In this document: positions 24,038 through 63,473 of the stretch, one piece after another
Position numbering within the stretch: position 1 is the first letter of the stretch
How the letters are laid out: the number at the start of each line of letters is the position of its first letter
Source of the DNA: an uncultured Gemmatimonadaceae bacterium
GTDB lineage: Bacteria; Gemmatimonadota; Gemmatimonadetes; Gemmatimonadales; Gemmatimonadaceae
Length of the DNA: 64,000 nt
Assembly: GCA_963761305.1 (NCBI GenBank)
Contig: CAVXGK010000001.1
Location: 1,536,001 to 1,600,000 of the forward strand
Direction of reading: 5' to 3'
The notes under the pieces: generated by a model
Database searches by the model: none
What the model saw: only the letters and a program-made list of their open reading frames with translations
Told to the model about the DNA's origin: nothing
Position numbers and translations under genes: made by a program

Positions 24038-24853
24038 TTGCCGAGTAACCCGTTCGATCTCACGGGAAAAACCGCGCTCGTCACCGGCGGCTATGGCGTG
24101 CTGGGCGGCACGATCGCCACCGGACTCGTCGCGGCCGGCGCGCGCGTCGCGGTGCTCGGCCGCCGCCACGACCTCGCGGCCGCGAAGGCCGACGAGCTGC
24201 GACAAACGGGTGGCGACGCGATGCCCGTCGTCGCCGACGTGCTCGAGCGCGACGCGGTTGGCCTGGCGAGCGACGAAGTGCAGCGGGCGTGGGGGCGGAT
24301 CGACATCCTCGTCAACGCGGCCGGCGGCAACGTCGCGCGCGCACGCAACGATTCGCGCAGCATCTTCGAGGTGCCGATCGACGCGTTCGACGAAGTGTTG
24401 CGGTTGAACCTTCACGGAACCGTGATACCCTCGCTGGTCGTCGGCGAGGCGATGGCGCGCGTCGGTCGCGGATCGATCATCAACATCTCGTCGATGGCGG
24501 CGATTTCGGCGATCAGCGGCACGCTCGGATACTCGGTGGCCAAGTCGGGCGTCGACTCGTTCACGCGATGGTTGGCGATGGACCTCGCGCGCAAACATGG
24601 CGACGGCGTGCGCGTGAACGCGGTCGCGCCGGGTTTCTTTGTGTCGGCACAAAACCGCGCCGTGCTGGTGGACGACGCGGGCCAGCCGACGCTCCGCGCC
24701 CGCACCATCATCCAACGCACGCCGATGGGCCGTTTCGGCCGGCCCGATGAACTCGTGGGCGCGGTCCGGTGGTTGGCGAGCGACGCGGCTTCCTTTGTAA
24801 CGGGCGTCGTGATTCCCGTGGACGGAGGATTCAGTTCGTTCAGTGGGGTCTAG
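24038..24853 (+). CDS. SDR oxidoreductase resembling UxuB-type D-mannonate oxidoreductase
   Basis: TGGYGVLG, NAAGGN, YSVAK, VRVNAVAPGFF..QNR, TPMGRFG and DGGFSSFSGV motifs. Confidence 0.8.
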   Translation: MPSNPFDLTGKTALVTGGYGVLGGTIATGLVAAGARVAVLGRRHDLAAAKADELRQTGGDAMPVVADVLERDAVGLASDEVQRAWGRIDILVNAAGGNVARARNDSRSIFEVPIDAFDEVLRLNLHGTVIPSLVVGEAMARVGRGSIINISSMAAISAISGTLGYSVAKSGVDSFTRWLAMDLARKHGDGVRVNAVAPGFFVSAQNRAVLVDDAGQPTLRARTIIQRTPMGRFGRPDELVGAVRWLASDAASFVTGVVIPVDGGFSSFSGV

Positions 24854-24966
24854 TCGGGCCACTCGTGCCGCTCATATCGATGGGGCACTTCGACTTGCTG
24901 TCACCGGCGCCCCGTTCGCGGTTCGTCCGCTCGCCATCGTCGGTCGCGCAAAACGATGACGAATGC

Positions 24967-25021
24967 TTGACAGACCGCGGTGAGAGCGGCCAACATAGCA
25001 GAGATAAGGTCAATTGATCTT
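24967..25021 (+). promoter_or_regulatory. Candidate sigma70 promoter and palindromic operator for the enolase-GH67-xyl operon
   Basis: TTGACA at 24967-24972. The -10 is weak. Near-perfect palindrome AAGGTCAATTGATCTT at 25006-25021. Confidence 0.55.
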
Positions 25022-25071
25022 TCGCTAAACCTTCAGGCGAGAGGCATTCCATTGCTCGCCCGCGCCGCCGC

Positions 25072-26316
25072 ATGAAGATCATCGACGTCCGGACTACGCC
25101 GGTCAGTGTCCCCCTGGCCGCGCCCCTTCGCCACGCGAACGGGTGCCACTGGGGTCGCTTCGTGCGCACCATCGTCGAGGTAGAAACCGACGACGGTCTC
25201 ATCGGGCTGGGCGAGATGGGCGGCGGCGGCGAAAGCGCGTCGGCGGCCTTCGCGGCGCTCAAGCCCTACGTCATCGGACACGATCCCGCAAAGCTCGAAG
25301 AGCTTCGCTTCAAGATCTCGAACCCCACGGCGTCGCTCTACAACCATCGCACGCAGATGGTCGCGGCGCTCGAGTTCGCGTGCCTCGACATTCTCGGCCA
25401 GGCGTGGGGCGTCCCGGTCTCGGAAATTCTCGGCGGCCGGCTGCGCGATCGCGTGCCGTTCGCGTCGTACCTCTTTTTTCGCTACCCAAGCTCGGCAGAC
25501 GGATCGGGCGAGGTGCGCACGTGCGAGCAGCTCGTCGCCGAAGCCAAGGCGCTCAAGGCGAAGCACGGCTTCACGACGCACAAGCTCAAGGGCGGCGTGT
25601 TCCGCCCGGAGTACGAGCTCGAATGCTACCGCGCGCTCGCCCACGAGCTGGCCGGCGATCGTTTTCGCTTCGACCCGAACGGCGTCTGGTCCACCGAACA
25701 GGCGATCTGGTTCGGCCGGCATATCGAGGATCTGAATAACGATTATCTCGAGGATCCGGTGTTCGGGCTTCACGGCATGCGGCGCGCGCGCGAAAAGCTG
25801 CGCCTGCCGCTGGCCACGAACACGGTCGTGGTGAACTTCGAGCAGCTCGCCGCCAACGTGCTCCAGACGGCGGTCGACGTCATTCTCCTCGACACGACGT
25901 TCTGGGGCGGCATCCGCTCCTGCGTGAAGGCCGCCGCCGTGTGCGACACGTTCCAGCTGGGCGTCGCGGTGCATTCGTCCGGCGAGTTGGGCATCCAGCT
26001 CGCCACCATGCTCCACCTCGGCGCGGTGATTCCGAACATCACCTTCGCGGCCGACGCGCACTACCACCATCTCGCCGACGACGTGATTCAAGGCGGGAAG
26101 ATGTCGTACTGCCGCGGCAGCATTCCGGTCCCGAAAGGCCCGGGCCTCGGCGTGAAGCTCGATCGCGACCGGCTCGGCATGTATCACGAGGCTTTCTGTC
26201 GGCTCGGCAACTATCCGTACGATCAGGATCCGCTGCGCCCGGGCTGGGCGCCGTTGGTGCCGAACACGGATTGGGCCGACCCTCTCGACGCGCGGGCCCC
26301 CCAGATTCCGTTCTGA
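25072..26316 (+). CDS. Enolase-superfamily acid-sugar dehydratase, glucarate dehydratase-like
   Basis: HKLKGG (KxK), FDPNG, YLEDP, LATNT and VHS match the glucarate dehydratase subgroup ligand pattern. PKGPGLGV at the C-terminus. Confidence 0.8.
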
Positions 26317-26329
26317 GTCGAGCGCCTTC

Positions 26330-28579
26330 GTGCGACGAACTCCCGTGTCGCGTGGCGCCGCCGTTTGGCGGGCTGTGGCGTCGCTCGCGCTCGTCGCGTC
26401 GTCGGCCGCGGCGCAGCGCACACCGCCGTCCGAAGACGGGTACGACCTGTGGCTCCGCTATCGCCTCGTCGCCGACGCGCCGCGTCTCGCCGAGTATCGC
26501 GCTGCCATCAGCGCGATTTACATCGACGGCGACTCGCCGACGCTCCAGGCGGCGCGCGACGAGCTGACGCGAGGACTGACCGGTCTCCTCGGGCGCACGA
26601 TTCCCGTTTCGCAGGGAGTGACCGGCGACGGTGTCGTCATCGGCGGCACGCCGAGCAGCTCAGCGGTCGTGAAATCGATGGCGCTCGACGCCGCACTCCG
26701 GCCGCTGGGCGCCGAGGGATTTCTGTTGCGCGCCACGACCGTGCATGGAAAGCGCGCGATCGTGATCGCCGCGAACAGCGACGTGGGCGTTCTGTACGGA
26801 GCGTTCGCGTTGCTGGCGCGACTCCAGCAGTCGATGCCGGTCGCGCGGCTCGACGTGTCGAGCGCGCCGCGCATTCAGTTCCGTCTGATCGACCACTGGG
26901 ACAACCTCGATCGCAGCATCGAGCACGGCTACGGCGGACTATCGCTGTGGGAATGGGCCGCCCTCCCCGATTCGATCTCGCCGCGCTATCGCGATTATGC
27001 GCGCGCCGAAGCGTCAATCGGCGTCAACGGCGTTGCGCTCACGAACGTCAACGCGAACGCCAAGGCGTTGACGGCCGAATACCTGAAGAAAGTGGCGGCG
27101 CTCGCCGGCGTCTTTCGTCCGTACGGCATTCGCGTGTACCTCACGGCGCGCTTCAGCGCGCCGATCGAGATCGGTGGACTCAAGACGGCGGACCCTCTCG
27201 ATCCCGCGGTGCGCGCGTGGTGGAAGGCCAAGGCCGACGAGATCTACTCCGCGGTTCCCGACTTCGGCGGTTTCCTCGTCAAGGCGAACTCGGAAGGACA
27301 GCCGGGTCCGCAGGACTACGAGCGCTCGCACGCCGACGGCGCCAACATGCTCGCCGACGCGGTGGGTGCGCACGGCGGCATCGTCATCTGGCGCGCGTTC
27401 GTCTATAGCAACGAGGTGCCGACCGACCGCGTGAAACAGGCGTACGAGGAGTTCACGCCGCTCGACGGACAGTTCCGCGACAACGTGATGATTCAGGTGA
27501 AGAACGGCCCGCTCGACTTCCAACCGCGCGAACCGTTCTCACCGCTCTTCGGCGCGATGCCCAAAACGCCGCTCATTCTCGAATTCCAGATCACGAAAGA
27601 GTACCTCGGCGAGGACACCCATCTCGTATTCCTCGGCTCGCTGTTTTCTGAGGTACTATCGGCTGACACGTGGGTCCACGGCAAAGGCTCGACGGTCGCC
27701 AACGTGATCGACGGCTCGCTGCACGGTTATCAGCGCACGGGAATCGCCGGCGTCGCGAACACGGGTACGGATCGCAACTGGACCGGATCGCATTTCAACC
27801 AGGCGAACTGGTACGCGTTCGGCCGGCTCGCGTGGGATCCGAGCTTGAGGCCGGGGACGATCGCCGAAGAGTGGGCGCGCCGCACGTTCTCGAACGATCC
27901 GAAGGTCGTCGCGCCGATCGTGCACATGATGCTCGTGTCGCGCGAAGCCGTCGTGAACTACATGGAGCCGCTCGGGCTCGCACACATGATGGGCACGGAC
28001 CACCACTACGGTCCAGCGCCGTGGGCCCGTCTCGCTCGCGCGGACTGGATGCCCTCCTACTACCATCGTGCGGACAGCGTCGGCATCGGGTTCGAACGCT
28101 CGCCCAAGGGGAGCGACGCCGTCTCACAGTATGCGCAGCCGCTGCGCGAGCTTTTTGGCGTCCGTGCGCAAACACCGGACTCGCTGCTGCTCTGGTTCCA
28201 CCATGTCGGCTGGACGGAGCGCACGAAATCGGGACGCACGCTGTGGGAGGATCTCTTCTACCACTACGGCAAGGGAATCGACACCGTCCGCTCGATGCGT
28301 CGCACGTGGCAGTCGCTGGGGGGAAAGATCGACAGCGCTCGTTTTCACGACGTCGACGATTTCCTCGCGATCCAGGAGCACGAGGCCGTGTGGTGGCGCG
28401 ACGCCGTGCTCTCGTACTTCCAAACGTTCTCGAACCTACCAGTGCCGAATGGCTACACGCCGTTCGCGCATCCGCTCTCGTTCTACCGCGCGCTTCGCTG
28501 CCCGGCCGGTCCCCCCGGAGATGTTCGCGCCTTTACGGCACTCGATGCGCGCAAGCCGCGCTGCCCCGCCGTTTACTGA
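26330..28579 (+). CDS. aguA: Alpha-glucuronidase, GH67
   Basis: EDGYDLWLRY, HWDNLD, NVNA, FLVKANSEGQPGP, KNGPLDFQPREP and EFQITKEYLG motifs. Signal peptide. Confidence 0.95.
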   Translation: MRRTPVSRGAAVWRAVASLALVASSAAAQRTPPSEDGYDLWLRYRLVADAPRLAEYRAAISAIYIDGDSPTLQAARDELTRGLTGLLGRTIPVSQGVTGDGVVIGGTPSSSAVVKSMALDAALRPLGAEGFLLRATTVHGKRAIVIAANSDVGVLYGAFALLARLQQSMPVARLDVSSAPRIQFRLIDHWDNLDRSIEHGYGGLSLWEWAALPDSISPRYRDYARAEASIGVNGVALTNVNANAKALTAEYLKKVAALAGVFRPYGIRVYLTARFSAPIEIGGLKTADPLDPAVRAWWKAKADEIYSAVPDFGGFLVKANSEGQPGPQDYERSHADGANMLADAVGAHGGIVIWRAFVYSNEVPTDRVKQAYEEFTPLDGQFRDNVMIQVKNGPLDFQPREPFSPLFGAMPKTPLILEFQITKEYLGEDTHLVFLGSLFSEVLSADTWVHGKGSTVANVIDGSLHGYQRTGIAGVANTGTDRNWTGSHFNQANWYAFGRLAWDPSLRPGTIAEEWARRTFSNDPKVVAPIVHMMLVSREAVVNYMEPLGLAHMMGTDHHYGPAPWARLARADWMPSYYHRADSVGIGFERSPKGSDAVSQYAQPLRELFGVRAQTPDSLLLWFHHVGWTERTKSGRTLWEDLFYHYGKGIDTVRSMRRTWQSLGGKIDSARFHDVDDFLAIQEHEAVWWRDAVLSYFQTFSNLPVPNGYTPFAHPLSFYRALRCPAGPPGDVRAFTALDARKPRCPAVY

Positions 28580-28623: not shown

Positions 28624-29790
28624 ATGACATCAGACGCGTACACCCCGCAGCCCGAGCATCATTTCACCTTCGGCTTGTGGACCGTCGGCAACGTCGGCCG
28701 CGATCCGTTCGGCGATCCCGTGCGGCCGCCCGTGCCGCCGACGCGCATCGTGCGTGAGCTCGCCAAACTCGGCGCCTACGGCGTGAACCTGCACGACAAC
28801 GACCTCGTGCCGCGCGACGCGAGCGCCGCCGATCGCGATCGCATCGTCCGCGAGTTCAGGGCGGCGCTCGACGAGACGGGCATGAAGGTCCCGATGGCGA
28901 CGACGAACCTGTTCGGCGATCCGGTCTTTCGCGACGGCGCGTTCACCAGCAGCGACGCCCGTGTGCGCGACTACGCGCTCCAGAAGACGATGCACGCGAT
29001 CGACCTCGGCGTGGAGCTCGGCGCCGAGACGTACGTGTTCTGGGGCGGACGCGAAGGCGTCGAGACGAACGCGGCGAAAGATCCGCAGGAAGCCGTGAAG
29101 TGGTTCCGCGAAGCCATCGACTACCTCTGCGAATACGTCCGATCACAGAAATACGCGCTGCGGTTCGCGCTCGAGCCGAAACCCAACGAACCGCGCGGCG
29201 ACATCTTCTTCCCGACGATCGGACACATGCTGGCGTTCATCTACACGCTCGCGCATCCGGACATGGTCGGGCTCAACCCGGAGATCGCGCACGACACGAT
29301 GGCCGGCCTCGATTTCTCGCACGGCGTGGCGCAGGCGCTAGAGGCGGGCAAGCTCTTTCACATCGACCTCAACGCGCAGAAGCCCGGCCGGTTCGACCAG
29401 GACTTGCGGTTCGGCAGCGAGGACGTGAAGGGCGCGTTCTTTCTGGTGAAGCTGCTCGAGGACGCGAAGTGGCCCGGCATGCGGCACTTCGACAGCCACG
29501 CCTATCGCACCGAAGACGACGCCGGCGTGTGGGACTTTGCGCGCGGCAGCATGCGCACCTATCTCATCCTCAAAGAAAAGGTGGCGCGCTTCAACGCCGA
29601 CGCCGAGGTTCAGGGAATGCTCAACGCGCTCGAGTCGCGCGGCGGTGCGGGGACGCGGCCGCGTTTCTCGCCGGAGGGCGCGCGCGAGCTCAAGACGCGC
29701 GCCTTCGACCTCGACGCGATGCGCAGCCCCGGCTACGCGTACGAACGGCTCGATCAGCTGACGATGGAGATTCTGCTCGGAGTGCGTTGA
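28624..29790 (+). CDS. xylA: Xylose isomerase (short class I type)
   Basis: [40 protein letters not shown] and FDQDLRFG motifs. Confidence 0.97.
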
Positions 29791-29791
29791 C

Positions 29792-31297
29792 GTGACGCGC
29801 TCCACCTTCCTCGGCGTCGACGTCGGCACGAGCGGCGTCAAGGCGATTCTCGTCGACGCTTCGGGCGACGTGCTGGCGTCGGCCGTCACGCCGCTCCAAC
29901 TCTCGACGCCGCAGCCAGGATGGGCCGAGCAGGATCCGGACGCATGGTGGGCGGCGACCGCGGCGGCGATTCGAACCGTGCTTGGCGCGCGGCCGGGTGA
30001 GTACCCCGACGCGGTCGGCGTGTCCGGCCAGATGCACTCGTCGGTCTTTCTCGATGCGCGCGGCGACGTCATTCGGCCCGCGCTCCTGTGGTGCGACGGC
30101 CGCACGACCGCCGAGTGTCGCGAGATCACCGAGCGCGTGGGCGGCGAGCGTCGCTTGCGCGAGCTGGCATCCAATCCCGCGCTCGAGGGCTTCACGCTGC
30201 CGAAGGTCCTCTGGCTGCGACGGCACGAGCCGAACGCGTTCGCGCGCCTCGCGACGGTGATGCTGCCCAAGGATTTCATTCGCTACAAGCTCACCGGCGT
30301 CATCGCCACGGAACCGTCGGACGCGTCGGCGACGTTGATGTACGACACGGCGCGCCTGCGCTGGAGCACCGAGATCCTCGACGCCGTCGGTCTTTCGCAC
30401 AGCATCGTGCCGAACGTGGGTGGATCGTCCGAGGTGCTCGGACGCGTCTCGGTAGAGGGTGCCGGCGCAACGGGCCTTCGGTCCGGCACTCCGGTGGTCG
30501 GCGGCGGCGCCGACAACGCCTGCGGCGCGGCCGGCGTCGGTGCGATTGCGCCGGGTGAAGCGGTGTCGAGTTGGGGGACGTCGGGCACCGTGCTCGCGCC
30601 GATGTCGGAACCGCGCGTCGATCCGACGCTCCGCGCGCACACGTTCTGCCACGTCGCGCCGGGCGTGTGGTATATCATGGGCGTCGTCCTCTCGGCCGGC
30701 GGCGCATTCGCCTGGTATCGTGACCAGCTCGCGCGCGACCTCGCCAGCACCGGCGAAGCGAACGAGCGGCTCAACGCCGAGGCGATGGCGATTCCGCCGG
30801 GCGCCGAGGGCGTGACGTTCCTGCCGTATCTGCAGGGCGAACGCACGCCGCATCGCGACGCGTCGGCGCGCGGCGCCCTCCTCGGCTTGAGCCTCGCGCA
30901 TTCGCGCGCGCACGTCACGCGTGCGGTGATCGAAGGCGTGTGTTTCGCGCTCCGCGACTCGGTGACGATCCTCCAGGAGCTCGGCGTCACGACCGACCAG
31001 ATGTTGTTGACCGGCGGCGGTGCGCGTGTGCCGTTCCTGCGGAAGATGCAGGCCGACGTGTTCGGGCTGCCGGTGTGCACGGTGAATCGCGAGGAAGGGC
31101 CGGCGTACGGCGCGGCGCTGTTGGCGGCCGTCGGGGCCGGCGCGTTTCCCGATGTGGCCTCCGCCGCCGCCGCGACGCTGCGACGGGCGCCGGTCGAACA
31201 GCCGGCGCCTGGCGCGCACGCGGCGTACGACGAGCCGTATCGCCGTTTCCGCGAGTCCTTCCACGCGGCGCATACGGGCGCAGATTCAAGGCGCTGA
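29792..31297 (+). CDS. xylB: Xylulokinase
   Basis: FGGY family motifs GVDVGTSG, SGQMH, WCDGRT, GGADNA and PYLQGERTP. Directly follows xylA. Confidence 0.93.
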   Translation: MTRSTFLGVDVGTSGVKAILVDASGDVLASAVTPLQLSTPQPGWAEQDPDAWWAATAAAIRTVLGARPGEYPDAVGVSGQMHSSVFLDARGDVIRPALLWCDGRTTAECREITERVGGERRLRELASNPALEGFTLPKVLWLRRHEPNAFARLATVMLPKDFIRYKLTGVIATEPSDASATLMYDTARLRWSTEILDAVGLSHSIVPNVGGSSEVLGRVSVEGAGATGLRSGTPVVGGGADNACGAAGVGAIAPGEAVSSWGTSGTVLAPMSEPRVDPTLRAHTFCHVAPGVWYIMGVVLSAGGAFAWYRDQLARDLASTGEANERLNAEAMAIPPGAEGVTFLPYLQGERTPHRDASARGALLGLSLAHSRAHVTRAVIEGVCFALRDSVTILQELGVTTDQMLLTGGGARVPFLRKMQADVFGLPVCTVNREEGPAYGAALLAAVGAGAFPDVASAAAATLRRAPVEQPAPGAHAAYDEPYRRFRESFHAAHTGADSRR

Positions 31298-31316: not shown

Positions 31317-32369
31317 ATGCGACGTGTCCTTCGACATCTGCTCGGCCTCCAGGAGGCCGGCCTCGTTCTCGTCCTCGTCGCGCTCGCGATCGCATTGACC
31401 GCGCTCGCCGGGTCGCACGTCGATCCGTTGTCCGGGCAGACGGTCAACAACTTCTGGAACTCGTACACGCTGATTCAAACCGCGACCGACGCGACGTTCT
31501 TCGCCATCATGGCGATCGGCGCGACGGTCGTCATCATCTCGGGCGGCATCGATCTCTCGGTCGGTTCGGTCTACGCGCTGTCGGGCGTGTCGATGGCGCT
31601 GCTCCTGCGCGCGCTCGGCCCGATGAGCCCCGGCACGACGACGATCGTCGGCCTCGTGGCGTGCGTCGGTGTCGGGTTGTTGAGCGGGCTGCTGAACGGC
31701 ATGCTCGTCGTCGGGCTGCGCGTGCATCCGTTCATCGTCACGCTCGGCACGATGTGGATCCTGCGCGGCATCGCGTTCGTCGCCACGCGCGCGCTCAGCA
31801 TTCTGGTGCCGCCGGCGCTCACGCACGTCGCCAAAGCGTCGCTCGGATTGCGCGGCGGCCTGTATCCGGTGCCGATGCTGGCGATGCTCGTGTGCGCCGT
31901 GATCGGCACGATCTACCTCACGCGCACCGTGATGGGCCGGCACATCTTCGCGTTCGGCGGCAACATCGAGGCGAGCCGGTTCGCCGGACTCTCGCTGCGC
32001 CGGATTCAGATCGGCGTGTTCGTCGTCGCCGGGCTCACCGCCGGCTTCGCCGCGTTCCTCGGCGCGAGCTTCTACGGCTCGGCGTCGTCGGGCGACGCGC
32101 AGGGCTACGAGCTGTACGTCATCGCGTCGGCCGTCGTCGGCGGCGCGAGTCTCGTCGGCGGACGCGGCAGCGCGCTCGGCGCCACGCTCGGCGCGGTGCT
32201 CATCGTTCTCATTCGACAATCCATACGCACGCTCCACTTCGATCAGAACTACGAATGGATCGTGATCGGCTGCGCGATCATCCTCGCCGTCGTCGTCGAT
32301 CAAACGAGCACCCGATTGACCGCCCGGCGTCTCGCCGGACGCGCAGCCGTCGCAGGCGAATCGTCGTGA
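31317..32369 (+). CDS. Monosaccharide ABC permease (RbsC/XylH-like)
   Basis: ISGGIDLSVGS, PFIVTLG, GGNIEAS and YELYVIASAVVGGASL motifs. ATG at 31317. Confidence 0.9.
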   Translation: MRRVLRHLLGLQEAGLVLVLVALAIALTALAGSHVDPLSGQTVNNFWNSYTLIQTATDATFFAIMAIGATVVIISGGIDLSVGSVYALSGVSMALLLRALGPMSPGTTTIVGLVACVGVGLLSGLLNGMLVVGLRVHPFIVTLGTMWILRGIAFVATRALSILVPPALTHVAKASLGLRGGLYPVPMLAMLVCAVIGTIYLTRTVMGRHIFAFGGNIEASRFAGLSLRRIQIGVFVVAGLTAGFAAFLGASFYGSASSGDAQGYELYVIASAVVGGASLVGGRGSALGATLGAVLIVLIRQSIRTLHFDQNYEWIVIGCAIILAVVVDQTSTRLTARRLAGRAAVAGESS

Positions 32370-33871
32370 GCGGAACCGCCGTCCGGTTCGAGGGAGTCAC
32401 CAAGCGATTCCCCGGCGTGCAGGCGCTCGACGACGTGACGCTCACCGTCGCCGCCGGCTCGTGCCACGCGCTCTGCGGCGAAAACGGCGCCGGCAAGAGC
32501 ACGCTCGGAAAAATCCTCGCCGGCGTCTATAGGCCTGATGCAGGGCACGTATTCATCGACGACCGCGAGGTGAACTTCGCCGGTCCGCGCGACGCGTTCG
32601 CCGCCGGCGTCGGCATCGTGCACCAGGAGCTCGCCTTCTGCGAGAATTTGTCCGTCGCCGAGAATCTCTGCCTGGGCGCGTTGCCGGTGTCACGCGGCCT
32701 CGTCGACCGGCGCGCCGTCGTGCGGCGCGCCCGCGAGATGCTGGCGTCGATCGGCGCCGACCTCGACGTGACGCGACGACTCGGCGAGCTGCCGATCGCG
32801 CAACAGCAGATGGTGCAGATCGCCGTTGCCGTCGGCGGCGGAGCGCGCATCATCGTCTTCGACGAGCCGACGAGCAGCTTGAGCCAGGTGGAAGCCGAGC
32901 GTCTCTACGCGCTGATCGACGATCTGAAATCGCGCGACGTGACCTGCATCTACGTGTCGCATCGCATGGCCGAAGTGTATCGGCTATGCGACACGATCTC
33001 GGTGTTGCGCGACGGCCGACACGTCGCGACGAAGCCCACGCCGGAGCTGAGCGAGCCGGATCTCGTGCACCTGATGATCGGCCGCCCTGTCGCTGTCTAC
33101 TTCGGCCGGCATGGGGACGACGCGACGACGTCGATTCCCGAGCGAAAGGAGCTGCTGCGCGTCGAGCATCTCTCCTCCGCCGGTCGCTTCGATGACGTCT
33201 CGTTCTCGGTGCGCGCGGGTGAAGTCGTCGGGCTCGCCGGGCTGGTCGGCGCCGGACGGTCGGACGTCGCCGAGACGATCTTCGGCGCGCGCGCGCGAAG
33301 CGCGGGACGCGTCACGCTCGACGGCCAGGACGCGAACGTCTCCGATCCGGCCGGCGCGATTCGCCTCGGCATCGCGCTCGTGCCGGAGGATCGAAAACGA
33401 CAGGGTCTCGTGTTGTCGGAGAGCGCGCGTCGAAATACGACGCTGCCGCTTCTCGAGCGCCTGTCGCGCTTCACCTGGCTCAAACAGACGGAAGAGCGCG
33501 CGCTGGTCGAGCGTCATTTCCATATGCTGCGCGTGCGCGCGCCGGACATTGACGCGCCGGTCGCCGGACTTTCCGGCGGCAACCAGCAGAAGATCGTGCT
33601 CGCGCGCTGGCTCGCCGCGAATGCAAGAGTGCTGATGCTCGACGAGCCCACGCGCGGCGTGGACGTGGGCGCGAAGGCCGAGATTCATGGGCTCATTCGC
33701 GAGATCGCCGACAGGGGCGCGGGCGTGCTGCTCATCTCGAGCGAGTTGCCCGAGTTGCTCAGCTTGTCCACGCGCATTCTCGTGCTGCGCGCCGGTCGTC
33801 TGGTCGGCGAGATGCCGGCTGCCGGCGCGACGCAAGACGGTCTGCTGCGGCTCATGGCCGGCATCGGCTGA
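32366..33871 (+). CDS. Monosaccharide ABC ATP-binding protein (RbsA/XylG-like)
   Basis: GTG start overlapping the permease stop. KRFPGVQAL, GENGAGKST, LSGGNQQK and DEPTRGVDVGAK motifs. Confidence 0.92.
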   Translation: MSGTAVRFEGVTKRFPGVQALDDVTLTVAAGSCHALCGENGAGKSTLGKILAGVYRPDAGHVFIDDREVNFAGPRDAFAAGVGIVHQELAFCENLSVAENLCLGALPVSRGLVDRRAVVRRAREMLASIGADLDVTRRLGELPIAQQQMVQIAVAVGGGARIIVFDEPTSSLSQVEAERLYALIDDLKSRDVTCIYVSHRMAEVYRLCDTISVLRDGRHVATKPTPELSEPDLVHLMIGRPVAVYFGRHGDDATTSIPERKELLRVEHLSSAGRFDDVSFSVRAGEVVGLAGLVGAGRSDVAETIFGARARSAGRVTLDGQDANVSDPAGAIRLGIALVPEDRKRQGLVLSESARRNTTLPLLERLSRFTWLKQTEERALVERHFHMLRVRAPDIDAPVAGLSGGNQQKIVLARWLAANARVLMLDEPTRGVDVGAKAEIHGLIREIADRGAGVLLISSELPELLSLSTRILVLRAGRLVGEMPAAGATQDGLLRLMAGIG

Positions 33872-53157: not shown

Positions 53158-53161
<4 letters not shown>

Positions 53162-56100
53162 GGCGACGCGTAGGCGTACATGCCCAGCATGGTGCCCACG
53201 AACCCGCCCGCGTGCTTGGTGCTCAGGATCGTGCCGTCGGCGTCGCGCAGCAGCGGCAGCCATTCGCCGGCGCGCCGGCCATAGTAGAAGTCGTATCGAC
53301 CACCGCGCGCGGCGATCTTGAGAAACACCGTGGCGTCGTTCGAGAGATGGATAGGCGCGCTGGCGATCACGCTGTCCTTGGCGCGCGCGCCGTCCGACAT
53401 CTCGACCCGCACGACGGTGGAATCCCCGGCGCGCGCCACACCGATGAAGTAGTGGTGCGTCTCGTTCTGAAAGGCGACGAGGCCCGCCTTGTCGCCCGTG
53501 CGCTCCGGAACGAACCGCATCGCCGCCGACGCGCTCGCCGTGATGTGCTGCTGGCGGCGTCCGACGAACGACGGTTGCCCCGGTCCGCTGATGTCGTCGC
53601 TGCGCGCCTGAATCGTGAGCCAACCCGGCGTCGATGCCAGATCCCACCATTTCGTGCGCGTCGTTCGCATGAACGTCCAATACTTCGCGAGCGCCACGTC
53701 GGAGAAATCGTCTCGCACCGAGAAGTTGCCGTCGCCGACGGGAATTGGACTCGATGCGCTCGGAAGCTTGGGACGCGTCGACTCGTACGGCACGGTCGCG
53801 GTGCCGGCAAGAATGACGGGCCATCCGTCGGTCCATCGCACGGGCAGCAGAAACGTCTCGCGCCCGATGTTGTACTTGTCGTCCTCGTAGGGACGCGTGC
53901 CGAGGAAGACGGCCCACCATTCGCCGTTCTGCGTCTCGACGAAATCTGCGTGACCGGTCGACGTCACGGGAAACGGGCGCGAGGGATCGAGATGCCGCTG
54001 CGTGAGAATCGGGTTGCCGCCGTACGGCGTGTACGGTCCCAACGGCGACGACGCGCGGAACACGACCTCCGAATGCTGCTCCGCCGTGCCGCCCTCGGCG
54101 CAGATCAGATAGTACTGCCCCTTCACCTTCAGAATGTGCGGCGCCTCGATCCAGATCGGTTTCTTCGCGAGATCGACGCCGCCGTTCACGAGCACCGACC
54201 TCGGCCCCACCATCTTTTTGCTCGCGACGTCGTACTGCTGCACCCAGATCGCCCGGTGCCCCTCGTACAACGGCGTGCCCACCGGCGGTCCGTTGTTGGT
54301 GATGTACGCTTTGCCGTCGTCGTCGAAGAAGAGCGACGGATCGATGCCGTCCACCTCGTGCAGCCAGATGGGGTCGGACCACGGGCCGGCCGGATCCTTC
54401 GCCGTCACGATGAAGTTGCCGCCGTGGTCGACGAGCGTGGTGATCATATAAAACGTGCCGTCGTGAAAGCGGATCACCGGCGCGAAGATGCCGCGCGAGA
54501 TCCCGGCGCTGTCCACGGGGAGCTGCGACGGCCGATCGAGCACGCTGCCGATCTGCGTCCAGTGCACGAGATCGGCGCTGCGGAAGATCGGCACGCCCGG
54601 GTAGTACACGAAGCTGGACGTGACCAGATAATACTCGTTGCCGGCGCGTGTGATGCTCGGATCCGGATAGAATCCGGCGAGAATCGGATTGAAGAACCGA
54701 TCGGCGCCCGGCGTGAGCGTTTTGTAAACGCTGTCCTGTCCGTCGTACTGGAACCAGTCGAAGCGCGCGACCGGCGTGTTCCGCCGAGCCGCCGCGGGCG
54801 CGACGTCTCCGTCGGCGCTGTCGTCGCCGGAATGATCACCACTCGTCGCCGACGACGACGGCTTGGCCGGCGTCCACCGATCGAAGCTCTCCGGCGGACC
54901 GAGGTAGGTCTGCGGCAACGGACGCGGCGAGATCACGAGCCGTTGCACCACGACGCCCGGGTCCACCATCCAGAACTTGAGCACGTGCTGGCCGGCGCGT
55001 GCGATCGTGTGCGTCGTCACCACGTCGAGAATGTTGTTGGCGACGGCGCGCTCCCACGCGCGCTGCGAGGTGTCCGGCCACGCGTCCACGACTTGCGGCG
55101 GCTCGTCGTCGATCGAGACGGCGTAGCGAAGACCGGTGGCGGCGCCGGTGAAGTTGAGTGTCGGAGAGAGATACGCGTGCACCTGCACCGTACCGCTGTC
55201 GAACATGAACAGGTCGTACTCGAGCCGGGGCGAGTTGCCGCCCGGAACAACGCTCGGCGACGTGACCGGTGCCGGCGTGATGCCCGACGCCGCTTTGCCG
55301 AGATTCGGCACACGAACCCACGTCAACGACCCTCTCCCCAACTCACGCGAGAAATGCTCGGCGTCGATCGCGATCAAGCCATTCGTTTCGATGAATCCCG
55401 AGACGGCGTCGCGCTTGGGTGAGGACGGATAGTCGATCGGTGCCTGGACGACGATGGCGGACTTACGCGGCCCGGTGATCGTGATCGGCACGCGGCTCGC
55501 GCCGAAGGGCGCCTTGGTCCAGTCGACCGTCACCGCGAGCCGGCTCTCCTTCGCGATCGTGCCCTTGGCCGGCGAGACGGCGACCCATGGCTGTGCGGCG
55601 GAGGCGGTGAATGCGAACGACGTCTTTCCTCGATTGTAGACGTCGATGTGATACGTCGGCCGCGTGTACGGATCGAACGGCGGTAACGAGAGCTCACGCG
55701 ACGCGACCTGGCCTCGCGGCGGCGGCGGGCGGTTCTCTTCGACCACCGCGACGCCCATTTCGGCGGCGATGGGAAGCGGAATCGTGTCGACGCGCGGCAT
55801 TACGTTCTTGGGCGGCTCCTGCCAATACGTGTAGCCGATGTGCGTCTGGTCCATCATGTGGTCCCACTTTCCGCCGGCCAGCTTCGTGTTGTAGTAGCGC
55901 GTGATCTCGGCGTCCTTGTCGAACAGGCGGCGCGCGCTGTCGGCGAGGTCGTTCGTCGCCGCGCGCCACTGCGCCGCGTACATGTGATTTCGCGCGGCGG
56001 TGACGTAGAGCTTGTTGAGATTCGCCGCCGCCTCGATCGGATGCAGCACGAGCTCGTAGTAGGCGTCGTGTGTGTTCGGCGCGAGCGTGGCGCCGACCTT

Positions 56101-57786
56101 CGTCGCCACCGCGAGCAACGAGTCGTACGACGCGACGATGCGCTCGGCTTCGCGATAGTTCGCGAGGCTGTACGTCGCCGTGTCGAGGAGCTCCGGTTTT
56201 CGGCGCGCGGCGAAGGTGAGCGTTCGCGTGACGATGTCGGCCACCTCCGTCGAGCGCTCGAACCCGAACTGCTGCGACGCCCACGCGCGCGTGTACGCCG
56301 GCAGTCCCGCGGCGGTGATGCGCGAAGGATTCCACGCATAGTCGAGGAAGAACGAGATCGGAAATTCCATCGGCTTCAGATCGCCGACGTTCACGATCCA
56401 GATGCGGCGCGCGCCGTAGTCGTACGCGAGGTGCATCTGCTCCCAGACGCGCGCGATCGGATTCGTGTTGATCCACTTGTAGTTGCGCGGCCCGCCGACG
56501 TAGTCGAAATGGTAGTAGATCCCGAAGCCGCCGGCGCGCGCTGTGTCGGCGCGCGCGGGCAGCCGCCGGATGTCGCCCCAGTTGTCGTCGGAAAAGAGGA
56601 GCGTGACGTCGTCCGGCACGCGCATGCCCTTGTCGTAGTAGTCCTGCACTTCCTTGTAGAGCGCCCAGACCTGCGGCGTCTGCGACGCCGGCTTCCCCGT
56701 GACCGAGGCGATGATGTCGCGCTGGTCGTGCACGATGCGCTCGAGGAGCGCGACGTTGCTCCCCGTCGTCATCGGCTTGTCGCCGTCGCCGCGCATGCCG
56801 ATCGTGACGATGCTCTCGTGCGTTCCCATGTGGCGAATGCCGTCCGTCCAGAACGCGCGCAGCGTGGAGTCGTTGCGCTCGTAGTTCCACTCGCCTTTGC
56901 CGTAGCGCTTCCATTCCTGCTGCGCGCGCATCATCGGCTCGTGGTGCGACGTGCCCATCACGATCCCGTAGTCGTCGGCGAGTTGCGGGTCGGCTTTGTC
57001 GTCGTCGTTGAACGCGTTGCCCCACATCGCGGGCCACAGATAGTTGCCCTTGAGACGCAGGATCAGCTCGAACACCTTCTCGTAGAACTGGTGGTTGATC
57101 CCGCCGAACTTCTCCTTGGCCCAGCCGGTGAGCGCCGGCGCTTCGTCGTTGAGGAAGATCCCGCGGTACCTCACCGCCGGCTCGCCGTCGCTGTGGGCGC
57201 CCGGGAGCACGTAGAGCGCCGGCTTGTGGCGCACGGGCACGTCGGCCCACCAGGTCCACGGCGACACGCCGATCGCCGCTGAGACGTCGTACAGCCCGTA
57301 GATCGTCCCCCGCTTGTCGCTTCCCGCGATGATCAGCGCGCGATCGATCCCCTCGGTGGGGTGTTCGACAATTTGAATGAGGAATGTCTCCCACCGCCCC
57401 GATACGCGCGAAACGTCCAGCGTGCCCTCGTGCACGAGTCCGTCGATGAACGCGTTGTGCCCGAGCGTTCCGGCCACGATCACCGTGCGCGTCTTTGCCG
57501 GCATCACCGAGTCCACCGTGATGACGGGCGCCCCGGCGCCGCCGGCGACGCGTCCCAGGTCGGCCGCCAGGTCCTTCGCCGCGCGCTGCACTCCGACGAA
57601 ATCGGCCGGACTCACCACGAGCCGAGTCGCGTGGCTGGCGGCGATGAGCGGGAATCGTCCCGCCCCCTCCGCCGGCGTTACATATGAAGGCGTCTGGCCA
57701 CCCGCTCCGAGGCTAGCGCCAAACGCGAGAGATGCTGTGACCAGATGTCTCTTGGAACGCGACAACATGACGTGACCCATTGTCAT
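53158..57786 (-). CDS. GH115 alpha-glucuronidase fused to GH43 beta-xylosidase/arabinofuranosidase
   Basis: GH115 motifs GSDKRGTIYG, YRGIFLNDE, LWPAMW, SHHEPM, GMRGDGD, YYHFDY and NVGDLKP. GH43 motifs NPILAGFYPDPS, GIDPS, WIEAPH and GRETFL. The start is 57786 (ATGA overlap) or 57768. Confidence 0.92.
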
Positions 57787-61432: not shown

Positions 61433-62482
61433 CTAGACCAGTCCCGCGTCCGTGACCTCCGGATAGCTCCGCTGCACGCGCGAGATCTCTTCTGCCTGAC
61501 CGGGCGACAGCACTTCGTCGCGATCGAGGCACCAGATTCCGTCGAGCAATCCTTGCCGGCGCAACACTTCGTGAATTCCCGGAATGCACCCGCGGAATCC
61601 GTTGGTCGCGTCGAACACGGCGGCGTTGGCGTCGGTGAGCGCCGCGCCGTGTGACAACAGCGTCGGACCGAACTCGCCCGACGCGCGTGCGTCCTTGATC
61701 GCGGCAAGCAGAGCGACGGCGCCGCGCGTCCACACGGCCCACTGGCCGAGCAATCCGCCGTCGATCCAGCGCAGCACCGTCGTGCCGCCGACATTGATCG
61801 GAAACGGCGTGAGCAAGTCGGCGACGATGTTGTCGTCGTTGCCGGTGTACAGCGCGATGTCGTCGCGCCCCGCTTCGACCACCGCGCGCACGACGTCGAT
61901 CGTCTGGTAGCGGTTGAACGGCGCGATCTTGATCGCCCAGACGTTCGGGATCTCGGCGAACTCTCGCCAGAATCGATACGAGAGCACGCGTCCGCCGACG
62001 GCCGGCTGGAGATAAAATCCGAACAGCGGAAGAATGTCGGCGATGGTGCGACAGTGCTCGAGCAGCTCGTCGTCGCTCGCGTCGCCCAAACCGCCGAGGC
62101 TGAGCAGTCCGGCGTCGTAGCCGAGTGCGGCCGCCAGCTCCGCTTCGCTGCACGCTTGGGGCGTGCGACCGCACACGCCGGCGATCATCGCGAACGTGCG
62201 ATCGCGTTCGACGTTGGCGAGCGCTTCGTCGATCGCCAGCTCGAGCACGGGACGCAGCAGTCCCACACCGGAATCGCGGATCGCGAACTGCGTCGTGTGG
62301 ACGCCGACCGCCACACCGCCCGCGCCGGATTCGACGTAGTAGCGCGTGAGTCCGCGCTGGCGGCGTTCGTCGAGCGAGCGTGACGCGTCGAGCGCGAGCG
62401 GGTGCGCCGGAATCACCTGCCCGGAGCGCAGGTGTTCGCGCACGCTCGGTTTTGAACGTTCGGCGTTCTCAGAACTTTCCAT
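61433..62482 (-). CDS. DHDPS/class I aldolase-family protein
   Basis: IPAHPLA, GVAVGVHTTQF, GFYLQ, AIKIAPFNRY (candidate Schiff-base Lys) and YTGNDD motifs. ATG at 62482. Confidence 0.82.
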   Translation of the reverse strand: MESSENAERSKPSVREHLRSGQVIPAHPLALDASRSLDERRQRGLTRYYVESGAGGVAVGVHTTQFAIRDSGVGLLRPVLELAIDEALANVERDRTFAMIAGVCGRTPQACSEAELAAALGYDAGLLSLGGLGDASDDELLEHCRTIADILPLFGFYLQPAVGGRVLSYRFWREFAEIPNVWAIKIAPFNRYQTIDVVRAVVEAGRDDIALYTGNDDNIVADLLTPFPINVGGTTVLRWIDGGLLGQWAVWTRGAVALLAAIKDARASGEFGPTLLSHGAALTDANAAVFDATNGFRGCIPGIHEVLRRQGLLDGIWCLDRDEVLSPGQAEEISRVQRSYPEVTDAGLV

Positions 62483-63473
62483 CGCGCGTCTCGAATTTCG
62501 TCGGTTTGCCGAGCATGGGGCCGCCGTGCTCCACCCAATCGGCGACGCGATCCCGCATGTCGTCCGCACTCACGGCGGGCGGCGCGAACGACGACGAGAG
62601 CCGCGTCGTGTTGCTGAGCAGCGCGTCGGCGCGCTCCGTGCCCACGAAACGCGGCGGCTTGTTGAACCGCTCGCCGAACCACGTCCCCAGCTCGCGAACC
62701 GACAGCGTCTCGCGCCCGGTCAAGTTGAGTACGAACGGAGGGGCGTTGGCGAGCGGCAGCGATTCGATGGCGATGCGATTCGCGTCGCCCTGCCAGATGA
62801 CGTTCACGTAGCCCATGTCCACCGACACGGGCTCCGACCGATACACCTTGACCGCGATGTCGACGAGCACGCCGTATCGCAGGTCGATCGCGTAGTTGAG
62901 ACGGAGAATCGCGACCCGCGTTCGGTGCGTGCGCGCCGCGAGCTCGAACATGCGTTCACGCCCCACACACGATGCCGCGTACTCGCCGACCGGCGCGAGC
63001 GCGTCGCCCTCGCGTGAACCGCCCGCCTCCACCGGCGTCAGCGCGTAGACGTTGCCCGTCGAGAAGGCGACGATGCGCGACGCGCGATAGCGGTCGGCGC
63101 AGTACGCCGGCACCAGCGTGTTCATCCCCCACGTCATCGCCGGCGCGCCCGTCGTGCCGAACTTCTGGCCCGCCATGAAAATCACGTTCGGCGCGTCGGG
63201 GAGGGCCATGACGTCGTCGTGGTCGAGCAGATCGCACGACAGCGTCTCGACGCCCGCGTCCTCGAGATGCCGCCGCGCGTCGGCCGACGACCACCGTGAC
63301 ACGGCGATCACGCGCCGCGAGTCCTGCGCCGCGCGACGCGCCATGCGCGCCAGCGTCGGTCCCATCTTGCCGCCCGCCCCGAGGACGATGACGTCGCCCG
63401 GGCACGCGGCGAGGGCGGCCTCGGTTTCCGCTCTCGGTGCGGAGAGCGCCGCGTCGAGCTCGGCTTCGGTCAC
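62469..63473 (-). CDS. NAD-dependent epimerase/dehydratase family protein
   Basis: LGAGGKMG Rossmann motif. FSTGNVY, GEYAASC and RLNYA motifs. Confidence 0.82.
   Translation of the reverse strand: MTEAELDAALSAPRAETEAALAACPGDVIVLGAGGKMGPTLARMARRAAQDSRRVIAVSRWSSADARRHLEDAGVETLSCDLLDHDDVMALPDAPNVIFMAGQKFGTTGAPAMTWGMNTLVPAYCADRYRASRIVAFSTGNVYALTPVEAGGSREGDALAPVGEYAASCVGRERMFELAARTHRTRVAILRLNYAIDLRYGVLVDIAVKVYRSEPVSVDMGYVNVIWQGDANRIAIESLPLANAPPFVLNLTGRETLSVRELGTWFGERFNKPPRFVGTERADALLSNTTRLSSSFAPPAVSADDMRDRVADWVEHGGPMLGKPTKFETRDGKF

Follow-up and report, generated by a model that had tools for sequence, protein, structure and literature searches.

We analysed a stretch of 64,000 nucleotides, called the window below, from a contig of an uncultured Gemmatimonadaceae bacterium (GenBank assembly GCA_963761305.1, contig CAVXGK010000001.1, positions 1,536,001 to 1,600,000). 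Our subject is an enolase-superfamily gene within a xylan locus, whose product resembles glucarate dehydratase (GudD) and is a candidate lyase for a sugar methyl ether. This gene, here called the enolase, is preceded by a gene for a short-chain dehydrogenase/reductase (SDR) and followed on the same strand by genes for a GH67 alpha-glucuronidase and the xylose enzymes XylA and XylB (Table 1).

Table 1. Features of the locus in window coordinates
Feature	Position	Strand	Basis
UxuB, SDR-type D-mannonate oxidoreductase (fructuronate reductase)	24038..24853	+	271 aa; PRK08277 over cut-off
GudD-subgroup enolase-superfamily enzyme, candidate 3-O-methyl-D-mannonate methanol-lyase	25072..26316	+	414 aa; MR_MLE_N and MR_MLE_C, alignment, GH67 linkage
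GH67 alpha-glucuronidase	26330..28579	+	All three GH67 Pfam domains
Xylose isomerase XylA	28624..29790	+	TIGR02631 over cut-off
Xylulokinase XylB	29792..31297	+	TIGR01312 over cut-off
Sugar ABC permease and ATPase, operon continuation	31317..33871	+	No binding protein in between
GH115 alpha-glucuronidase fused to GH43	53158..57618	-	Pfam GH115, GH115_C, GH43, GH43_C2

The GH67 operon and its enolase-superfamily protein

The GH67 gene starts 13 nt past the enolase stop, and the genes after it follow with gaps of 44 nt (xylA), 1 nt (xylB), 19 nt (ABC permease) and -4 nt (ATPase). The end of the SDR gene and the start of the enolase are 218 nt apart, and a promoter scan of this region did not find a consensus site. 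The SDR matched the D-mannonate oxidoreductase model PRK08277 with 324.9 bits against a cut-off of 281, and is the only strong UxuB-type SDR in the genome (in a tblastn search only the gene itself exceeded 120 bits). Coordinates and domains thus agree with the initial annotation, which had placed the enolase 13 nt before GH67, with xylA and xylB next and a UxuB-like SDR in front. The GH67 protein matched PDB 1gqi with an E value of 3.6e-253, and its N-terminus reads like a signal peptide. Residues of the 4-O-methyl pocket, mapped by spacing to those given in the accessible text of PMC8056927, are present (W190, E198, N239-V240-N241 and K318), and the NVN motif recurs in 90 of the 92 enolase-linked GH67 matches. 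Beyond this operon the window contains further genes of a xylan locus (SusC/D, GH3, two GH10 and the GH115-GH43 fusion), of which the fusion is a predicted second source of (methyl)glucuronate.

The enolase contains the Pfam domains MR_MLE_N (PF02746) and MR_MLE_C (PF13378), that is, a capping domain plus barrel. Its best NCBIfam model was glucarate dehydratase (TIGR03247), at 163 bits far below the cut-off of 828.7, and the mannonate dehydratase (ManD) model NF043051 gave 76 bits against a cut-off of 550. A structure model with a pLDDT of 96 was used for fold search only. The top Foldseek matches were all GudD-subgroup chains, and EFI structures without a titled function ranked above GudD itself.

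The GudD subgroup of the enolase superfamily is marked by a K-x-K motif, Asp, Glu and Asn metal ligands and a His-Asp dyad. In an alignment with E. coli GudD, to which the enolase is 31% identical, K171, K173, D201, N203, E227, N250, H301 and D274 fall on GudD K205, K207, D235, N237, E260, N289, H339 and D313, so that the motif set described as intact in the initial annotation is indeed complete. The equivalents of GudD Y150, H32, D366 and H368 are also kept. Residues that contact the substrate in GudD are changed: N27 is replaced by H21 and N341 by S303, the T103 loop falls in a gap, and R422 is not kept, at a position made less certain by gaps in the alignment around it. In GudD, N341 is placed beside the leaving group, and the distal carboxylate is bound by R422.

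Databases label members of this group glucarate dehydratase, and the records of close homologues name Gemmatimonadaceae as their source. Among 50% cluster representatives, identity to the top full-length relative was 68%, and no other clean full-length one exceeded 46%. Judged by sequence, the enolase belongs to a tight, functionally unassigned family that is separate from GudD and spread over several phyla. Active-site positions were practically invariant across the family whatever the gene context (179-sequence tree, from which duplicates and matches shorter than 370 residues were excluded), and this suggests one substrate throughout.

Linkage to GH67 and to the uronate pathway

Matching stretches were estimated at about 2000 in a genome collection and about 2900 in a metagenome collection, and the neighbourhoods of the 80 closest from each were compared. 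Because only the 80 closest were taken, these loci over-represent close kin, and Gemmatimonadota and Acidobacteriota make up most of them. A GH67 gene lay within 1 kb of the enolase in 47/80 genome and 51/80 metagenome loci; for loci flanked by at least 2.5 kb on both sides the figures were 34/60 and 22/31. The adjacent GH67 gene was always on the same strand as the enolase, upstream in 44 loci and downstream in 54. Since the adjacency recurs in 98/160 loci, on the same strand and in both orders, it is not due to chance, and the linkage to alpha-glucuronidases on which the initial annotation had staked its proposal was borne out.

The enolase was also found beside genes for UxuB (27/80 genome and 19/80 metagenome loci), a uronate isomerase of UxaC or Bh0493 type (25/80 and 32/80), an ExuT-like transporter (26/80 and 11/80) and CE15 (7/80 and 10/80). 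UxuA was encoded in the same locus in 9/80 and 2/80. The presence of a uronate isomerase, UxuB, KdgK and Eda among the neighbours is what a role like that of ManD or UxuA would require. In Pyrinomonadaceae the enolase stands between GH67 and a Bh0493-type isomerase with no SDR adjoining. An FAH hydrolase and an SDR lie downstream of it in 3/80 genome loci, and a GH38-like gene is a neighbour in 5/80, in loci of acidobacterial type, in one of them immediately followed by kdgK- and eda-like genes. KduI was found in 0/160 loci, and on this ground a KduI-type route was rejected.

Elsewhere in the host genome, which is 93% complete, genes for UxaC (C1:847110), UxuA (C1:813450) and KduI (C1:836709) were each found over their model cut-offs. 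Beside uxaC are KdgK-, Eda-, UxaA- and UxaB-family genes and an MFS transporter gene, and a CE15-like gene is present on C2. The genome therefore holds a complete UxaC-UxuB-UxuA-KdgK-Eda set. The initial annotation was right that the 64-kb window contains neither a uronate isomerase nor UxuA. Its view that the enolase and SDR act in place of uxaC and uxuA must be given up, as uxaC, uxuA, kdgK and eda are all present in this genome and all five Gemmatimonadota carriers have UxuA. Here the enolase supplements an isomerase pathway that is already complete and does not replace any part of it.

The distribution of the enolase was then compared with that of UxuA and GH67 in samples of genomes, each of which holds one seed genome with the enolase by construction. 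Among 201 Gemmatimonadota genomes the enolase was present in 5, GH67 in 8 and canonical UxuA in 24, and all 5 carriers had both GH67 and UxuA. Within the UxuA genomes of this group, the enolase was found in 5/7 with GH67 as against 0/17 without it. The family comprises a close and a basal subclade. Among 101 Rhodothermia genomes the close subclade was present in 7, of which 6 had GH67 and 4 canonical UxuA; within the UxuA genomes it was found in 4/11 with GH67 and 0/21 without. Thus in two groups, genomes with UxuA have the enolase as well only if they also encode GH67. From a plain mannonate dehydratase one would expect a tendency not to share genomes with UxuA; here the enolase is not redundant with UxuA. 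In the Acidobacteriota sample (151 genomes, with the unpublished genome G253 counted only in this denominator) there were 6 carriers, 5 with an adjacent GH67 gene, and the enolase is the sole mannonate-dehydratase candidate found in them. The Planctomycetota and Verrucomicrobiota samples gave no profile, because only the copy of the seed genome was present in each (1/151).

Several other genes of these loci deserve mention. URO-D-like genes were seen in five loci (L205, a Gemmatirosa plasmid record, and L020, L068, L106 and L165). At L205:9147-17352, a URO-D-like gene and genes for a corrinoid protein and an AcsV-like activator lie downstream of those for UxuB and a divergent UxuA. A demethylase of this kind was sought in the host genome and discarded as a candidate: there was no match to the URO-D family or to AcsV, and the only match to a B12-binding domain was at 34%. 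A 965-aa protein (L082:7045-9942) takes the place of GH67 before the enolase, with relatives in L061, L074, L089 and L168 and with genes for a uronate isomerase, an SDR, a transporter and GH2 downstream. It had no matches in Pfam, NCBIfam or PDB, and is a candidate new (methyl)glucuronidase. An unassigned 750-aa protein (L070:6485-8737) is encoded by a gene that has a GH38-like gene on one side and the enolase on the other; it has relatives in L032, L063, L073, L077 and L081, and its Atlas neighbours are GH63/GH94/GH116-like glycosidases. In the window itself, GH115 and GH43 are joined in a single gene of 1486 aa. The ABC permease and ATPase genes lack between them the binding-protein gene that separates them in related loci, to which a 64% match lies at G000:C2:3052351. 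A DHDPS-like gene is paired with an NAD-dependent epimerase-like gene at 61433-63473; no model exceeded 1e-45, and the pair is possibly a further sugar-acid module.

Substrate and proposed reaction

The enolase-free counterparts of these operons bear on the substrate, and 18 of 19 GH67 loci from sampled genomes without the enolase were inspected. ManD was found over cut-off in 5/18 (the xylan operons L226, L229, L232, L101 and L109), and in 4 of those 5 genomes UxuA is present elsewhere. Such ManD copies may act on the methylated acid. One further locus contained a divergent UxuA and one another enolase-superfamily gene. The former (L094:2097-3170) scores below cut-off, is about 32% identical to canonical UxuA and forms the last gene of a GH67-xylA-xylB operon; its genome has canonical UxuA elsewhere and no enolase. 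It is weak evidence for a substitute, since its relatives lie in unrelated sugar loci and beside the L205 corrinoid set. The latter (L099:11482-12777) is of a different, mandelate-racemase type, adjoins GH67 and belongs to a genome without the present family.

The basal subclade (62-71% identity) has the same active-site residues. In 6 Rhodothermia genomes the gene of this subclade stands directly after an SDR gene; 5 of these genomes have a lactonase gene there and 4 a GH38-like gene. For the one SDR tested, the best model was an aldose dehydrogenase, below cut-off. Upstream of the Sinorhizobium gene are genes for a lactonase, an SDR and an AGE protein; the sole model match of the last, below cut-off, was D-mannose isomerase. 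The Nonomuraea gene adjoins a GH38-like gene. The copy on pSymA of S. meliloti 1021 (L112, 28198-29428) matches in two pieces while other strains look intact, which fits the frameshift described in the accessible text of PMC2671204 if the gene is SMa0056, as we suppose. Uronate isomerase with UxuB, and oxidation of a mannose-type aldose, both give D-mannonate, and so the substrate very probably has a D-mannonate skeleton.

Taking these observations together, we propose, with a probability of about one half, that the enolase eliminates methanol from 3-O-methyl-D-mannonate to yield 2-keto-3-deoxy-D-gluconate (KDG), acting after UxaC and UxuB. The isomerase route through these two enzymes is an established pathway in the accessible part of PMC6353982. 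Yagi et al. 2017, as excerpted in PMC8056927, describe a GH67 enzyme that acts on methylated and barely on unmethylated aldouronate, with conserved pocket residues. In the proposed route, the predicted GH67 enzyme would free 4-O-methylglucuronate from xylan, and the UxaC of the genome and then the UxuB of the window, if they tolerate the methyl group, would convert it to 3-O-methyl-D-mannonate, because the carbon numbered C4 in glucuronate is numbered C3 in mannonate. The C2 proton would then be removed with the assistance of Mg and the C3 methoxy group expelled as methanol, with H301 as the presumed acid; tautomerisation would give KDG, which would pass to KdgK and Eda. UxuA would take only the unmethylated share. 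The enolase probably also dehydrates plain mannonate, and would do so in lineages without UxuA. The initial annotation had left it open whether the SDR acts before or after the enolase; as a normal UxuB it most likely acts before, and the alternative order is not favoured. More tentatively, we suggest a widespread family of cofactor-free sugar methyl-ether lyases with two subclades, both converting 3-O-methyl-D-mannonate to KDG and methanol, which the ManD copies may match. In the basal subclade 3-O-methylmannose glycans would be the source of the substrate, by the successive action of a GH38-like glycosidase, an aldose dehydrogenase and a lactonase. Four PQQ-family matches were found in the genome in a search for methanol dehydrogenase, none over cut-off, and are not used as support.

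The main alternative is that the enolase simply dehydrates D-mannonate and is, next to UxuA and ManD, a third enzyme type to have arrived at this reaction by convergence; the methyl group would then be removed by another enzyme or the methylated acid go unused. Such a dehydratase would account for the Acidobacteriota, where the enolase is the sole candidate in 6/6 carriers, for the ManD genes in the same slot of 5/18 loci, for the mannose-oxidation context of the basal subclade, which requires no methyl group, and for the demethylase-like set adjoining UxuB in L205. We consider it less likely on account of the profiles, in which the enolase accompanies UxuA in 5/5 Gemmatimonadota carriers against a background of 24/201 and is found in 0/38 UxuA-only genomes of the two groups; the preference of GH67 for the methylated acid (in the excerpt of PMC8056927) and the unmatched URO-D family in this 93%-complete genome argue in the same direction. 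Methanol might instead be eliminated earlier, from 4-O-methylglucuronate or methyl-fructuronate, to give a diketo or keto-aldehyde acid finished by isomerase and SDR. That the tightest link of the enolase is to GH67 itself, that the Pyrinomonadaceae triple lacks an adjoining SDR, that enolase-type galacturonate dehydratases are cited in the accessible part of PMC6353982 and that this genome encodes KduI all fit such a scheme. It becomes improbable when set against the absence of KduI from all 160 loci, the use of ManD as the usual substitute, and the basal subclade, which has the same active site and follows an SDR and lactonase that yield an aldonate.

Two further kinds of substrate are given the lowest probabilities. 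Dehydration of another aldonate (D-xylonate, D-gluconate or L-gulonate) would suit the xylan context and the FAH hydrolase and SDR that follow the enolase in 3/80 loci, and GudD takes both C5 epimers; XylA and XylB already handle xylose in the same operon, however, and linkage to GH67 (48/80) exceeds that to XylA (28/80), so that we regard this as very improbable. Least probable of all is an aldarate, glucarate or 4-O-methylglucarate. The GudD-subgroup fold, the catalytic residues and the database labels point that way, whereas the score of 163 against 828.7 bits, the 31% identity to E. coli GudD, the loss of N27, N341 and R422 and the isomerase-route neighbours point away from it. KdgD was not found over cut-off in the genome (best match 99 against 374 bits; the GarL aldolase alternative was not searched). 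The enolase is thus not an authentic GudD, and the 4-O-methylglucarate branch considered in the initial annotation is unlikely because the arginine for the distal carboxylate is not kept and there is no KdgD over cut-off.

A number of observations weigh against methanol elimination from 3-O-methyl-D-mannonate. Tolerance of the methyl ether by UxaC and UxuB is an assumed step. Sampled genomes are related, so their counts are not independent, and most GH67 genomes (3/8, 5/10 and 11/17 in the three samples) lack the enolase. No substitute is visible in 11/18 of the enolase-free GH67 loci, several of which are cut short. UxuA or ManD was found in 0/6 Acidobacteriota carriers, which fits plain replacement equally well; unless it is such a replacement, the enolase would there need to act on both substrates. 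Even among well-flanked genome loci GH67 is adjacent in just 34/60, and 12/80 genome loci were unreadable, with xylan or uronate genes absent or out of view. In the basal subclade, GH67 is found in 0/6 Rhodothermia genomes, and there is no sign that its sugar is methylated. A URO-D-like methyltransferase candidate adjoins the enolase in 3/160 loci, and the L205 set is a possible B12-dependent alternative for removing the same methyl group. Finally, S303 is not specific, because sister clades also have S or G at the position of GudD N341.

Significance and comparison with known systems

On wood xylan a large share of the glucuronic acid carries a 4-O-methyl group, and methanol was reportedly recorded in 2009 from the fermentation of methylglucuronoxylose by Enterobacter asburiae JDR-1. 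A Geobacillus review, in its accessible text, names the GH67 product simply D-glucuronic acid (PMC4194401). Our literature search, with most subscription journals, theses and supplements outside its scope, found no enzyme or pathway for this demethylation and no characterised member of the family. We regard the enolase as representing a real new family in a known superfamily, with a well supported pathway position and a plausible new reaction. If methanol is indeed released, this step would close a gap in pathway descriptions that treat the product as plain glucuronate, provide a function for a family whose thousands of members currently go by the name of glucarate dehydratase, extend the chemistry of the superfamily to the elimination of an alcohol from a methyl ether and supply a part for microbes meant to use whole hardwood xylan; were the ManD copies to act likewise, xylan would be a general bacterial source of methanol. 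A plain dehydratase would be a third mannonate dehydratase family, of modest interest.

E. coli GudD (b2787, PDB 1ec7) resembles the enolase in fold (TM 0.86), metal ligands, His-Asp dyad, the equivalents of Y150, H32, D366 and H368 and alpha/beta regiochemistry. It differs in sequence (31% identity), in N27 (H in the enolase), N341 (S), R422 and the T103 loop (neither kept), and in lying among glucarate genes rather than in a xylan/mannonate context. The nearest solved relatives are the EFI structures 4it1, 3vc5, 3vdg, 3va8 and 4dye (E values of 1e-79 to 1e-60, TM 0.84-0.89), which are only 34-40% identical; 4it1, 3vc5 and 3vdg keep N27 of GudD and have an R-D motif close to the C-terminus. 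UxuA and ManD likely share the pathway position and product of the enolase, and ManD stands beside GH67 in 5/18 loci, while UxuA has another fold and coexists with the enolase family. For the chemistry, a precedent is the enolase-superfamily enzyme 3,6-anhydro-L-galactonate cycloisomerase (Vibrio EJY3 and SCO3480), compared here by its description in the accessible text of PMC9706016, which forms a 2-keto-3-deoxy acid by cleaving an aldonate ether at C3; its ether is internal, no alcohol is released, and the enzyme is of mandelate-racemase-like type with Glu as third metal ligand instead of N250. Demethylation of 6-O-methyl-D-galactose by a P450 (PMC6292453) likewise removes a sugar methyl ether. 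That route is oxidative and oxygen-dependent, whereas the route proposed for the enolase would be a cofactor-free elimination giving methanol.

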